DNA of 64,000 nt from Octopus sinensis (lineage: Eukaryota). The notes below the pieces were generated by a model. That model worked only from the letters and a program-made list of their open reading frames with translations, ran no database searches and had not been told where the DNA came from. The translations under genes were made by a program, and so were the position numbers. Where the stretch lies: positions 56,234,001-56,298,000 of the forward strand of contig NC_043010.1 in NCBI RefSeq assembly GCF_006345805.1, in the 5' to 3' direction. Each line of letters opens with the position of its first letter. Position 1 is the stretch's first letter. Shown here piece by piece: positions 5,220-62,430 of the stretch.

Positions 5220-5496
5220 CTTCCTCTTGCACTCTTCTGTCTTCGAAAGAACTTTTCTTCACCCATTCCCTTCCGGTCATTCAAAATGTGACCGCGTGTG
5301 TACCGTTGGCGATTTTTTTTCCTCCGTCTTCCCTTCTCTGGATCTTTCCTTTTCCTGTGTTTCTGACGAAGAGCTCCGCTCGAAACGTTAAACCTTCCTT
5401 CCCTTCCTTCCTGAGCGTCCAATAATATTATTATATTTGTTCCACGTCCTCGCGTTGTCGTGTTTTCTCTTTGTGTTTTCATGTTTGGATTAACTA
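5220..5496 (+). mobile_element. Penelope-like terminal (pLTR-type) non-coding unit carrying a hammerhead motif
   Basis: Pyrimidine-rich unit between (CA)n and (TG)n tracts containing the minimal hammerhead at 5359-5393. Confidence 0.55.
5359..5393 (+). ncRNA. Minimal type I hammerhead ribozyme motif
   Basis: Stem I GTTT/AAAC; core CTGACGA plus one extra A; stem II GAGC-tcc-GCTC; GAAA; palindromic stem III A-CG-T; predicted cleavage after 5389. Confidence 0.75.
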
Positions 5497-5691
5497 TGTG
5501 TGTGTGCGTGTGCGTGTGTGTGTGTGTGTGTGTGTGTGTGTGTGTGTGTGTGTGAGAAAAAGAACACAATGACGCAATCCACTCTGCCAGAAATTTGGAA
5601 CGACGTGCTGTACTGCTTGGCATACATGCCAGAGCCTCCAATGCGAACATTTGAGAGTGTTTGGGGGTCAGTCTGAGGACAGTGCAATCTG

Positions 5692-6176
5692 AGAACATGT
5701 ACCGAGAGTGATAATAATCAAATGTTCAGTCAACATCATGGTGTTTGGAGTGATCACTAGTGATGGTGACGTTATGCCTCCATCTTCCCACACGGAGACC
5801 TACATCAAGTACCTGGAGGAGGTAGTGCTACCCTGGGTTAAGTGGGTGTCTGCTGGAAGATCCTACGTCTAGCACCATGCCACACAAACAAGAGAACCCA
5901 GTCATGGCTGTCAGACAATTTCTACAATCACATCACACCTAACTCCCCAGACTGTAATCCTCCTGATTATTATGTGTGGGGCGCATTCACCAACTAAACA
6001 AGGAGACTGTCTAGAAGGGTTGCAGGAGATTCCGAACTTGTCTGGTGGCCGTGGTTGAAGCCAATGGCGATTTTATTGGATAAATTTACTCTTTAGTATT
6101 TCAAGATATTTTTATGTAATTTGGGGAAATATATCTATCAAAATGCGTAATTTAAATAACAATTTATTCACCGCAT
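5692..6176 (+). mobile_element. Tc1/mariner (maT/DD37D-like) transposase fragment, 3' part
   Basis: Translation: NIMVFGVITSDGDVMPP, YIKYLEEVVLPWVK, APCHTNKRTQSWLSDNF, PNSPDCNPPDYYVWG; stops and frameshifts present. Confidence 0.8.
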
Positions 6177-6928
6177 ACACACACACACACACACACACAC
6201 ACACACACACACACACACACACACACACACACAGTAATAACAATGATAATCCGTGGATGGAATTTAAAATATTTCTAAATTCCATCCAAGGATTATCATT
6301 GTTATTGCTATACTCTTCCTCCATTATATATCGGCACAGCTCGGTGCAACCCCCGCAAATACTAGTTGTCACCAGTTGGCATCATTAGACTGTAGCCGGC
6401 CATAATAATACAACCGAGGCTTTTAGATGGACATTCAAACGTCTCTCGTAAATGAACTTAAAGTGTATACATATATATATATATATACATCCACATATAT
6501 AATATATGTGAGTGTGTGTTTGCGCGCGTGTGAATTCGTATATATGCGCCTATATAAATGTATGTATATAGATAGATAGATAGATAGATAGATAGATAGA
6601 TAGATAGATAGATAGATAGATAGACAGACAGATAGATAGATAGATAGATAGATAGATAGATATGTATGATACGTCTACGTTTGTGTAGGACTCGAACTTT
6701 CCTGATGCCCTGAATATTAAATTTTTTGGATTCTAACGATTCCTACGACTAATTTAAATATATATATATATATATGTGTGTGTGTGTGTGTGTGTGTGTG
6801 TGTGTGTGGTGTGTGTGTGTGGTGTGTGTGTGTGTGTGTGTGTGTGCACCAAGTTAGTCCGGTATTAGCCGCACAGTTCGAGGTAAGGTGAATAAAATCA
6901 AAATAAGCAACAAGATATCAATTAGTAA

Positions 6929-7014
6929 TGCAGTACGACCGTTTCAAGTGGCGCCATTTAATTGAACAATACAATCATTACATCAATTTAAATACAATGC
7001 TATCTTCAGGTGCA
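6929..7014 (-). ncRNA. Type I hammerhead motif (left arm, long stem II insert)
   Basis: Minus strand: tgcac CTGAAGA tagc...actt GAAA cggtcg TA ctgca. Core intact, one stem I mismatch, weakened stem II. Confidence 0.6.
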
Positions 7015-7131
7015 GAAATAAATATATGGAATTTTAACAAGTAGGTCACATTAATATAATTTTTCTTGAATATTGTAACAGAAAAATTATATTAATGTGA
7101 CCTACTTGTTAAAATTCCATTTATTTATTTG

Positions 7132-7217
7132 TGCAGCTGAAGATAGCATTGAATTTTAATTGATGTTACGATTGCATTGTTCAATTCAATGGAGCCGCTT
7201 AAAACGGTCGTACTGCA
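7132..7217 (+). ncRNA. Type I hammerhead motif (right arm; G12->A, likely inactive)
   Basis: tgcag CTGAAGA tagc...gctt AAAA cggtcg TA ctgca. Perfect stem I TGCAG/CTGCA, but GAAA is mutated to AAAA. Confidence 0.55.
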
Positions 7218-59140: not shown

Positions 59141-60544
59141 GTGAGGGAACTAATAGAGTCCAGTTCACACACACACACACACACACACACACACATATAC
59201 GGTGTCATACACAAAATGACAATTTCTCCACTCACCCACACCCCACACACCCTTACCTGTAAAACCAGCCCTGGCAGTATTTACTATACCACTAATACCG
59301 CCACTCCGAACTACTACCATTACTACTACCACCACCACTTCTACCATATTTTGGTTTCAAATTTTTGGCACAAGACCAACAATCTTGAGGGAGGGGGTAA
59401 GTCAATTACATCGACCCCCAGTACGTACTACGGACGAAATGTTTAGCAGCATTTTGTCCGGCATGCTAACTATTCTACCAACTCTTTCTACTACTACTAC
59501 TACTACTACTACTACTACTGCTACTGCTGCTGCTGCTGCTGCTGCTATTGATAATAATATCACATTTCTGTGTGTGTATGTTCTGAACTCCTGCCCCACA
59601 TCAGACTACCCCAACGGTATACCGTCCCCAATTTCATACACTCCCTCAATTCTACCAACTCCTTCCGATTCTACCAATCCCCTCCAACTTGACCAACTCT
59701 CTGATCTCTGCTTACCATGCCTTCCCCTGCTGTCGCTTCCAATTACCAGGACCATTGGCAACCAATATTTCCAACAAACCCTCACCTTTCTCTTCTTCCT
59801 CTTCTCCTTCCCTGATGCTCTCCATAAACCCTTTTAGGCCGTATACAATCCTTTAACTTCTGCCATCTTCTTTCACAATTGTTCACATTTCCCGTGCATC
59901 CACCATAACTGAATATGTACACCATTACCTTCAGCAATATTTCCTTTGTTCTCTCTTACACTTCTTTATGTAATTTCCTCTGCTAGCACCATAGCAACCA
60001 TTCCATTATTTTCTAACAATTATATTTCAGCCTCTTCCAATTCTATCAAACTTAGATCCGAAAGACCCACATCCGACGACTACCTTCATTATCTGGTCCT
60101 TAATCGGAAATTCCATTGTGCGTGTGTGTGTGTGTGTGTGTGTGTGTGTGTGTGTGTGTGTGTGTGTGTGCGTGTGTATAAGGATATAATGTGTATCATA
60201 CTGGATAGCGGTGTTTGCTGGAATAGAGGCGACAAAGGTACTATGTATTGGGAAATATGTGCTACTATATACTCGATACTATATAGCACGGGAGACTCTA
60301 GTGGAAGTGTTGTTGTTGTTGTAGTAGTAGTAGTAGTAGTAGTAGTAGTAGTAGTAGTAGTAGTAGGAAAGAATGTGTGTGTATGTATATGCTATCTAAA
60401 TGAGTTGATGTGTGTGTACTGACGGGTAATCAGTTCAATAGTGCAGTGTAGGTGTGCGGATAGTAAAAGTTAAGTGATCAGTGAGAATATAAGCGACATG
60501 TAGTGTGTAAATATGTGAAGGACGGGTTTAGATGAAAAAGATTG

Positions 60545-60990
60545 GAGAATTTAGACCGTGAGGGACTGAAGTACGGAGAGAAAAAATTAATTCCTGATCT
60601 AGACGGAGACAGGAGTCCGCGTGGCCTCTATGCAAAGCCAGTCCGAAGACCGACAGATGTTACAGGAAAAGCCAGTCGAGCAGAAATGGCGCGCGATCCA
60701 GATATCTGTACCGAGTCTGATGTTCTGAAGATGTTCAGCAAAATGGTCAGCCAGACGTCGACTAGTTTGTCCAATATACGGGGAGTGGCAAAGAGAGCAG
60801 ATGATGCAGTAAATTAGATTATTGAAAGTACAAGTAAAGAAGTCGGTGATATAGTAGGTGCGGTCGTGGGTACAGGTCATAACGGTGGTATGAGAGGAGA
60901 AAGGGGCAGATGCGGCAGCGTGAGATGAGCACAAAGGACAGTGCCAGGCTGAGTACCGAGAGTGGAGAAAGAGCTACGAACCAGGAGATA
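60545..60990 (-). mobile_element. Penelope-like element GIY-YIG endonuclease region (pseudogenised)
   Basis: LVRS..GT..C..CRICP linker; FTCTFNNLIYCIICSLCHSPYIGQTSRRLADHFAEHLQNIR..IARHF; QELIFSLRTSVPHGLN. Confidence 0.9.
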
Positions 60991-61739
60991 ATGGACATTG
61001 AATAAACTAGCCAACGCTGAAGCCTCTACATGATCGCTTGATCTATTAACAATAGCAGCCAAGTCTTCCTCAAACCGTCCAAAACTATCATAAATTAAAA
61101 GGACATACTGCATAATCATATATTCTATACTCGATCAGGGCCAATATTCTAACAAACAACAAGAATCTAATCAAAAACAGCCTTAATCTAAACTCCCCAA
61201 ATATGGCGGTGTATCGCAACATGTCGTCTCAACATGTTCCCTTTGCGTTATACAAGCTAAAGAAGACGGCAACACACTGAGCATACTTATCACCAACAGA
61301 TGTATAGATTAGGCTGGTTGTAATATATAATCTATGTTATATGAACGAGGGCTGTGGGTGTGTGTGGGGGGGATACACTCGAGGATGTATATAAAACGAG
61401 ATGTGATTACAAGGAAGGATGTTTGTATTAAGTTTGCTAAAATATGAGAAGAAATTAATTTTAAGTGTTTACTAATTAATGCTATGAAGGGGCAGGTATA
61501 GGCTTTCGCGTAGGACATGTGTGTGGGTGTGCGTGCGTGTATACATACAGACACATATATGTAAATACATACTGAATAAATTTATTTATGGGTGTGTATT
61601 ATCAACATACGTATTCGTTGAATTTGGTTCAATAGAAGGAGATTCTTTTCAAACGTAGTATTCAATACATGATAAAAATGTGCAGTTTTCTATTTTCTAT
61701 TTAAGACTCACAACAATCCTTTCAACATTTTAATGTAAT

Positions 61740-62104
61740 TTCAGGTGCCATAGAAAATACGTTACGCGGTTGAAACTATTATAGCTGTATATGAATGCGT
61801 GTCGGGAACAGAAAGAACAGTTGGAAGTTGATCTGGACCATTTTTTGAAGGTCTTCACTGGTGATGAAAGCTGGTGCTACAGAATTTGCAGATGTAGTAG
61901 AGATGAGGGAAAACGCAACGGTGACGTTAAAAGGCAGCACTTTGCAAGAGTTCCAGTACTGCTTCAAATAATGGTAAACACATCTGGACTGATGCATTGC
62001 TTCAAATGGAGAATACTTTGAAGGCGATAAAAGTGTAAACGTGTAAAACTAAGTGAATAAAATAACATTGCAAAATTCCAGTTTCTCTTGGATACCACCT
62101 CGTA
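61740..62104 (+). mobile_element. Internally deleted mariner, 3' part with right TIR
   Basis: FLKVFTGDESWCY; CIASNGEYFEGDK C-terminus; terminus ...accacctcg|TA. Confidence 0.8.
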
Positions 62105-62131
62105 TATATATATATATATATATATATATAT

Positions 62132-62430
62132 ATTGATCAAAATAAAAACATGATGCGAAGGATTCAGCGGTACATATGTTTCGGGCCTTTATTAGACAGA
62201 TTTATAACAATGCATAATGTATGTCTGTGGCCTTCTTCAGCCGCGGCTGAAGAAGGCCACAGACATACATTATGCATTGTTATAAATCTGTCTAATAAAG
62301 GCCCGAAACATATGTACCGCTGAATCCTTCGCATCATGTTTTTATTTTGATCAATTTACTCCACCACCTACACCACCAAACGGTATACACAGGTGCTTAT
62401 AATTATCAAGTACTCACCCCGAATTTCTTT
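62132..62430. mobile_element. Fold-back unit: perfect 224-bp palindrome (62132-62355) plus a 75-bp extension, between (TA)n tracts
   Basis: 112-bp arms are exact reverse complements with no spacer (centre ...cagccg|cggctg...). Confidence 0.85.
62243..62320 (+). ncRNA. Type I hammerhead ribozyme motif (mirror copy on - strand at 62167-62244)
   Basis: Stem I GCGG/CCGC; CTGAAGA (62247-53); stem II aGGCC...GGCCc with ~41-nt insert; GAAA (62305-08); palindromic stem III ACATATGT; GUA cleavage after 62316. Confidence 0.75.

Follow-up and report, generated by a model that had tools for sequence, protein, structure and literature searches.

The window analysed here, a microsatellite-dense stretch of 64 kb from Octopus sinensis (C14:56234001-56298000), contains hammerhead ribozyme motifs at six loci: 5359, 6929/7132, 7324/7464, 41924, 42267 and 62167/62243. 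An earlier note on this DNA had proposed that they form one diverse system of short, non-coding ribozyme units. Sequence inspection confirmed all six motifs at the positions given there. Searches of the 2.72-Gb genome assigned every locus to a separate dispersed repeat family, designated A (62243), B (42267), C (5359), D (6929/7132), E (7324/7464) and F (41924). The paired coordinates 6929/7132 and 62167/62243 are the two arms of single fold-back insertions. Very probably, the six loci represent six unrelated hammerhead-bearing families: three are 3' ends of protein-coding Penelope-like elements (PLEs), truncated on their 5' side, one is a tandem element of 461-465 nt that lacks an open reading frame (ORF) and was likely copied by PLE proteins, and two are likely PLE ends. 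In the 41924 lineage, the core pair 3:8 is A3:U8, and this variant is predicted to be active. The features are compiled in Table 1.

A strict canonical hammerhead descriptor recovered one of the six loci, with its core at 42273. A relaxed descriptor permits one more base following A9, lets the basal pair of stem II be mismatched and accepts a stem III that is palindromic. It was defined after the motifs had been inspected, and its features match those published for PLE hammerheads. It identified C3:G8 cores at 5363 (+), 42273 (+), 62247 (+) and 62240 (-), i.e. at three of the six loci (5359, 42267 and 62243), while 100 dinucleotide shuffles yielded no C3:G8 match. A fifth match at 45565 consists of A/T runs and is probably due to chance. 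The same four cores show the CUGANGA...GAAA...UH arrangement with three stems and an open stem I; the copies at 7132/6929, 7464/7324 and 41924 do not, but members of their families elsewhere hold intact or near-intact motifs. Six type I hammerheads with a structure kept in unrelated sequences had been claimed; the sites and the separate families are real, and three of the six loci are decayed in the window. Self-duplex folding confirmed the palindromic stem III. Rfam reported no hammerhead among the 150 matches listed of 224 in the window, nor among the four matches in 41800-42500.

Table 1. Hammerhead-bearing insertions and the PLE remnant in the window (positions are those of the 64-kb stretch).
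Feature	Position	Strand	Remarks
Family C, 3' end	5107..5495	+	upstream sequence common to the copies is CA-rich, without ORF and at least 1.6 kb long
Family C, minimal type I hammerhead, C3:G8	5359..5393	+	extra A after A9, 4-bp stem II, stem III ACGU; predicted cut after 5389
Family D, inverted 5' arm	6895..7066	-	172 nt, 91% complementarity; GAAA intact, closing pair of stem I broken
Family D, 3' end ending in (TA)n	7080..7251	+	hammerhead 7132-7217, G12 changed to A (decayed)
Family E, old decayed copy	7324..7576	+	inverted arm 7324-7372; window core CUUAUUA
Family F, inverted 5' segment with Neptune-type linker/endonuclease fragment	41695..41892	-	41% identity, E 3e-8 to endonuclease of sister family
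Family F, 3' end ending in (TA)n	41904..42072	+	hammerhead 41919-41952
Family B, monomer positions 137-461 between two TA runs	42135..42460	+	monomer map over 60 fetched loci
Family B, canonical type I hammerhead, C3:G8	42267..42327	+	6-bp stem I, 4-bp stem II, stem III AUUGG-A-CCAAU; predicted cut after 42321; passes strict and relaxed descriptors
Separate PLE GIY-YIG remnant	60599..60973	-	PF01541 E 0.048; 43% identity, E 6e-7 to a PLE endonuclease of the same genome
Family A, inverted arm with second intact hammerhead (core 62240), without 52-nt tail	62129..62243	-	115 nt, 99% complementary, no spacer
Family A, 3' pseudo-long terminal repeat (pLTR) and tail ending in (TA)n	62244..62410	+	hammerhead 62243-62320, long stem II

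Family A is the best-resolved case. The best 40 of its 1465 candidates are 99-100% identical, and the 5' truncation of the copies is ragged. TA repeats adjoin the 3' end in 25 of 29 copies, and 12 of the 29 carry an inverted pLTR within 1.5 kb upstream; as a control, (TA)3 occurs within 8 nt downstream at 1.9% of window positions. The inverted arms examined end short of the 52-nt tail. One full-length element (L230) comprises a hammerhead, an 842-aa ORF with reverse transcriptase (RT) and GIY-YIG parts, a 2-kb untranslated region (UTR) and a second hammerhead; the two hammerheads lie 4.77 kb apart. The 842-aa frame was found at three places among 150 scored. This tandem pLTR-ORF-pLTR form was seen in family A alone. 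By eye, the ORF shows RT motifs, a C-terminal GIY-YIG, DKT, an RWK-like motif, a CxCX5C linker, CxxC and CxH, and no CCHH. Pfam returned neither an RT nor a GIY-YIG match for the protein, but its closest database homologues (31-39% identical, among them proteins from Argonauta) bear PF01541/PF26215. By its sequence, family A can be classed as a young autonomous Hydra-type PLE, with the clade taken from the motifs as defined by Craig et al. (2021; PMC8557442; this and the other papers are cited from the portions of their text that were accessible).

Family D copies are 88-92% identical, share non-coding sequence over 1.3 kb and have a CUGAAGA core in 21 of 24 cases. Their long stem II has a U-U mismatch at its base. 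In one of three 5'-extended copies (L307), a Hydra-type endonuclease lies upstream on the same strand (33% identity, E 4e-17 to the family A protein), and an inverted pLTR precedes it. The sequence thus assigns family D to the Hydra-type PLEs. Truncation at the 5' end, an inverted 5' segment and an optional tail recur in the endonuclease-bearing (EN+) PLE families A, D and F.

In family F, the window copy is damaged in stem I and has the core AUGAUCA with A3:C8. The family core is AUGAUUA: A3:U8 occurs in 22 of 25 aligned copies, and every one of 16 pattern matches has A3 and U8. This most unusual feature of the window had been overlooked in the earlier note. The family F hammerhead comprises a 5-bp stem I, a 2-bp stem II and the stem III ACCGGU, and in longer copies the motif is preceded, at a distance of 300-450 nt, by a Neptune-type linker and GIY-YIG. 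A sister family, F2, met in a flank, has at least 150 endonuclease matches. Downstream of its endonuclease, the motif is present in 17 of 20 stretches, absent in two and degraded in one. With positions 3, 7 and 8 left free, the F2 pattern gave 378 exact matches; among the matches listed, A3:U8 was found in 96 of 100 and C3:G8 in none of 100. Both families have a CX2-5CxxC linker before the C-terminal GIY-YIG domain (PF01541 E 6.5e-6). In addition, stem II of family F reads GCGAAGC in the window (41931-41937), a sequence known as an unusually stable DNA mini-hairpin; the agreement may be a coincidence. In the F2 pLTR (L261-L274), A3-U4-G5 form an AUG that opens a short frame, and a GTAAGT donor-like motif follows about 50 nt after the core. 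To judge from these sequences, the F2 ORF might start inside the ribozyme core. No pLTR-ORF junction was found in three upstream stretches.

Swapped 3:8 pairs extend beyond the window. When 936 kb of fetched loci were scanned with positions 3 and 8 free, many more families appeared, mostly C3:G8, together with U3:A8 and G3:C8 candidates. The pair is C:G in families A, B, C and D, A:U in F/F2, and G:C and U:A in two others, neither of which was seen in the window. This means that all four Watson-Crick 3:8 pairs occur in one genome. In three independent lineages, positions 3 and 8 have been exchanged jointly to another Watson-Crick pair, and G5, A6, G12-A14, A15.1-U16.1 and H17 have been retained.

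The G3:C8 family (G family) yielded 3173 matches at up to two mismatches, many of which come from one 60-bp array, and 520 exact matches with G10.1-C11.1; G3:C8 was present in 96 of 100 among the matches listed. No exact C3:G8 copy was found, and 27 G3:G8 copies compare with 4 C3:C8 copies. The hammerhead has a 7-bp stem I, and its minimum free energy (MFE) fold yields stems I and II (z -3.66). It resides in the pLTR of an RT+GIY-YIG element (L297, L298), 96 nt before the ATG in L298. A 400-nt tandem (L296, C30:11386600-11387900) combines the pLTR of this family with the beginning of its ORF and has the cores G3:G8, G3:A8 and G3:A8; its sequence identifies it as a retrozyme-like derivative of a coding PLE that lost an internal part. 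For the U3:A8 family, 1064 matches were obtained, with U3:A8 in 99 of 100 among the matches listed; MFE folding of the monomer gives no support for this motif.

Several further observations concern these two families. Most G family copies are truncated within about 30 nt upstream of the ribozyme (L147:442 (+), L298:161). On C27, from 14425783 to beyond 14431850 (L282, L283), an array of 60-bp units extends over at least 6 kb; each unit is a whole G3:C8 hammerhead, and the array begins at a fold-back insertion in a TA run. Two local arrays on C30 (L281, L285) have four to eight units of 165-215 nt, each with a G3:C8 hammerhead end and a TA run. Many U3:A8 matches (L145:2448 (-), L002:1366 (+)) occur as opposite-strand pairs up to 6 kb apart.

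The main rival holds that motifs with swapped pairs are dead or nearly so and are kept as a fold, as a protein-binding site or, in the case of A3:U8, as an AUG start codon, and that PLEs move without self-cleavage. We consider this unlikely, though several arguments favour it. In an anole PLE, hammerhead mutants left insertion in vitro unimpaired, and no RNA-seq ends were found at the cut site (PMC11167929). G8C alone lowers the rate 1e5-fold, and rescue by C3G is partial (PMC8495972). The excess of G3:G8 over C3:C8 copies would also fit inactive motifs, and the donor-like motif behind the F2 core would fit a start codon. Against dead motifs stands the joint 3:8 change in three independent lineages, which left the other core positions in place. 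In the G family, the hammerhead precedes the ATG, and coding constraint therefore does not account for G3:C8. As for the start codon, the frame that begins at the core AUG terminates ahead of the GTAAGT donor in subfamily F3.

Family B differs from the others in that it fits the sequence criteria of a non-LTR retrozyme: a head-to-tail, ORF-less monomer with a hammerhead in consecutive units and low GC. The monomer measures 461-465 nt, has a GC content of 34.7% and contains no ATG-started ORF longer than 33 aa. Its core pattern has 351 matches genome-wide. In a sample of 53 distinct loci (60 fetched, 7 duplicates removed), the monomer junction is crossed in 45 and both orientations are present in 34; the counts for this family are inflated, as half of the loci were found with a query of 1.4 monomers. 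Two cores one monomer apart were found in six of the 53 loci, and three cores in one locus. The 3' ends cluster: 79 of 93 lie at two monomer positions (~461 and ~100), and 64 of these 79 run into TA. On sequence grounds, these ends match the pattern of two start sites, tail and inverted arm known from PLE insertions (PMC11167929, PMC8557442). Among the records listed for family B, none is an RNA, and the contigs from 4 of 24 listed runs carry no information on transcript ends or circles. MFE folding of the single 42267 hammerhead lends this motif no support (z -1.57).

It has also to be considered that family B was not copied from circular RNA and arose instead by uncut read-through of a tandem locus, or that it represents the pLTR region of a coding PLE. 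To us this appears improbable. A linear template would account for copies that show no break at the predicted cut site and extend 128 and 228 nt beyond it, as well as for arrays that do not exceed ~2.8 monomers; unprocessed RNA was the main substrate in a related system (PMC11167929). The 400-nt tandem of the G family derives from a coding PLE by internal deletion. Against linear copying stands the monomer itself, which is seamlessly circularly permuted, has 35% GC, no ORF, a canonical hammerhead and a 5-bp stem III, and in this resembles the mollusc retrozymes that produce circular RNAs (PMC7229834). Against a coding parent, none of the 53 loci continues into common non-monomer sequence in the monomer maps.

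Families C and E are probably PLE ends. For family C, 40 of 2485 candidates were scored; they are 90-95% identical. The CA-rich DNA before 5359 had been regarded as a flanking microsatellite. It is common to the family copies and hence belongs to the element and not to the target site. Family C is likely a PLE 3' UTR with its pLTR. A link to an endonuclease in L090 was rejected as belonging to a separate element, because the 39 other best matches end 312 nt into the query, short of family C sequence. Family E copies are older (74-84% identical), and their cores are mixed: nine of 25 are C3:G8 with intact G5-A6 (CUGAUGA, CCGACGA or CUGACGA).

The proposal that all six loci are short non-autonomous ribozyme units or solo pLTRs of one non-coding system agrees with the short window copies, ORF-free within the unit, and with family B, but it is highly improbable and already refuted for A and F, since A, D and F continue into coding sequence, are raggedly truncated at the 5' end and have no defined unit length, and an endonuclease fragment lies inside the 41924 locus in the window itself. 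The description as short ORF-free units fails for 62243, 7132 and 41924, whose families run upstream into RT/GIY-YIG coding sequence; among the six, three are 3' ends that coding PLEs left behind after 5' truncation, and 42267 alone is a tandem element without an ORF. What stands of the earlier interpretation is the type I hammerhead class, the tie to the Penelope/retrozyme world and the placement in microsatellites by PLE machinery; the view that the loci are mainly non-autonomous units or solo pLTRs does not.

A number of points weigh against the picture of six families with active, selected ribozymes. In stem I of family F, two-sided changes occur at four of five pairs, with the subfamily variants GAGUC/GACUC, AUAUC/GAUAU and UGUC/GACA, and 90.4% of the cells are paired (shuffles 83.8%, slid arms no more than 35%); however, this covariation amounts to two or three subfamily splits, the rows were selected for resembling the core, and covarying pairs are no more numerous than in shuffles (103/500). 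Across the families, the stems have different sequences and still pair. The A3:U8 motifs have a 2-bp stem II, and as monomers they fold no better than shuffles (z 0.28 and 0.68). Unpaired cores also spread: G3:G8 copies outnumber C3:C8 copies in the G family and the L296 cores are unpaired. The coding link of family D comes from one of three long copies. For family E no coding part was found, an endonuclease 600 nt upstream being present in one of 25 loci only, and in four extended copies of family C a coding region was not reached. A parent ORF or PLE of family B was found neither in the 53 loci nor with 124 PLE proteins. The names Hydra and Neptune derive from motifs rather than from a tree. 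Among retrozymes predicted in frogs, eight of nine failed to cleave (Li, Clavereau and Pollet, 2026, preprint 10.64898/2026.07.22.740005). Finally, cleavage, RNA ends and circles are predictions from sequence. Family membership, the linkage of A, D and F to RT/GIY-YIG ORFs, the two constant 3' end positions that every family shows past the hammerhead, inverted 5' arms, (TA)n ends, the tandems of B and the fixed 3:8 swaps can be read directly from the DNA.

A mechanism can be proposed in which every biochemical step is borrowed from other elements. As in the anole PLE system (PMC11167929), the GIY-YIG domain would nick AT-rich DNA or TA repeats, and reverse transcription would begin inside the RNA, at two sites 3' of the hammerhead, which would explain the optional tail. 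It would usually stop early and often fold back, leaving an inverted arm (PMC11167929). Hammerheads with a palindromic stem III may process tandem transcripts, probably weakly and as dimers (PMC4209133, PMC7229834). In family B, two hammerheads on the same strand, one monomer apart, would release an RNA of ~463 nt, which could circularise and be reverse-transcribed beyond one round, riding on the PLE machinery. The swapped 3:8 pairs would be compensatory changes kept by selection for an active fold. A bolder claim goes further: the swapped A3:U8 and G3:C8 ribozymes, which complete all four 3:8 pairs in high-copy PLEs and which the literature searched offers only as engineered rescues, cleave and so reveal lineage-long selection, and retrozymes originate from PLEs through deletion of the ORF and bear PLE signatures where they are inserted. 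This claim is put forward tentatively; we regard the case for it as slightly weaker than the case against.

Much of this system is known. Minimal hammerheads in PLE pLTRs, with an extra base after A9, a long stem II, a palindromic stem III and a U3-A8 variant, were described by Cervera and de la Pena (2014; PMC4209133), who found that most motifs are single and stem from truncated PLEs, that opposite-strand pairs are separated by 100-700 bp and that a genome holds many unrelated families. The octopus families share these features; A3:U8 and G3:C8 cores and octopus are not mentioned in the accessible text of that paper. The diversity of sequence, the long stem II, the opposite-strand pairs and the palindromic stem III are thereby anticipated. 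Likewise, (TA)n targeting and the origin of retrozymes from PLEs have already been published. Compared with the Hydra clade (Craig et al., 2021; PMC8557442), family A agrees in GIY-YIG, DKT, RW motif, CxCX5C, CxxC, CxH, canonical hammerhead and (TA)n targeting, but its unit of 4.8 kb with a 2-kb 3' UTR contrasts with 'generally short (<3 kb)', and it is very young and high-copy. F/F2 resemble the Neptune clade in the CX2-5CxxC linker, the C-terminal GIY-YIG and the TA-repeat ends and differ from it in the A3:U8 core and the 2-bp stem II.

With animal non-LTR retrozymes (PMC7229834; Li, Clavereau and Pollet, 2026), for which an origin from PLE pLTRs has been proposed in both reports, family B shares the ORF-less tandem monomer, low GC, a canonical type I hammerhead per unit and coexistence with PLEs. 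It differs in its monomer of 461-465 nt, its short dispersed arrays and the PLE-type signs of its insertions (3' ends fixed at two positions, a 5' arm in inverse orientation and TA as target), which the accessible parts of those reports do not describe for retrozymes; no cephalopod is sampled in them.

As regards the core, Perreault et al. (2011; PMC3088659) found that natural C3-G8 covaries to U3-A8 and that a 2-bp stem II and a 10.1-11.1 U-U mismatch occur; the U-U mismatch of family D corresponds to the latter. Purine-3/pyrimidine-8 pairs are not listed as natural in the accessible part of that work; in the octopus genome, they are the fixed state of families that number hundreds to thousands of copies. 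An engineered C3G/G8C double mutant partly restored cleavage in a PLE hammerhead (PMC11167929). In the literature searched, which covered neither figures nor most supplements, no natural A3:U8 or G3:C8 hammerhead and no octopus hammerhead was encountered, so that a prior report is possible. All four 3:8 pairs have reportedly been examined in vitro by Przybilski and Hammann in 2007; covarying pairs are reported to have been active in vitro. The main text of an Octopus vulgaris repeat annotation does not contain the words 'ribozyme' or 'hammerhead' (PMC13282606, accessible text). Altogether, the families add new members to a known system, and the fixed A3:U8 and G3:C8 cores are probably a new natural variant.

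Some further results concern the surroundings. Of two PLE GIY-YIG remnants claimed for the window, that at 60.6-61.0 kb is supported (Table 1), and no descriptor-passing hammerhead was found after it. The other, at 19.6-20.3 kb, received no support in protein-level searches that included 124 PLE proteins. A density of one ribozyme locus per 10 kb had been suggested, which is reached only when decayed copies are counted. In 778 kb of fetched loci, 33 descriptor-passing matches (25 of them C3:G8) came from families other than the fetch query; the density is about one per 25-30 kb in this sample, which is biased towards TA arrays. In the flanks of L004, L010, L011, L025, L032, L059, L080, L112, L146, L147 and L149, no fewer than ten additional, unrelated families with C3:G8 hammerheads are present; many of them have stem II inserts of 30-62 nt, and they are often nested in TA runs that hold other PLE ends. 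Another high-copy PLE family (L244:1330-1642 (-)) has its 3' end ~170 nt past the endonuclease C-terminus, and this copy is without a descriptor-passing hammerhead. The element at 28170-28610 (inverted repeat 28216-28565) contains CUGAAGA but failed the descriptor and was set aside as terminal-inverted-repeat-like. Its imperfect terminal inverted repeats have 136-nt arms (82%) and a 78-nt spacer and resemble those of a miniature inverted-repeat transposable element. A broken non-LTR reverse transcriptase (48196-49786 (+), PF00078 E 4e-15) is unrelated to the hammerhead loci. At 53024-53095 (-), a tRNA-like match at the Rfam gathering score (29.2 bits) is probably the head of a short interspersed element.

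Apart from families B and F, the window finding amounts to ordinary PLE debris. In PLEs, the hammerhead was dispensable for insertion in vitro (PMC11167929). A compensated 3:8 swap fixed in three lineages is good comparative evidence of selection on an active fold, and the swapped families supply a natural series of wild type, mismatch and rescue. Since positions 3 and 8 can be exchanged, searches that require CUGANGA miss whole families, which comprise thousands of copies here; such missed cores may also bear on PLE clades that have been reported to lack hammerheads. Family B appears to be a cephalopod-type retrozyme with PLE-like insertion ends, and as such would lend direct support to the proposed mobilisation of retrozymes by PLEs.

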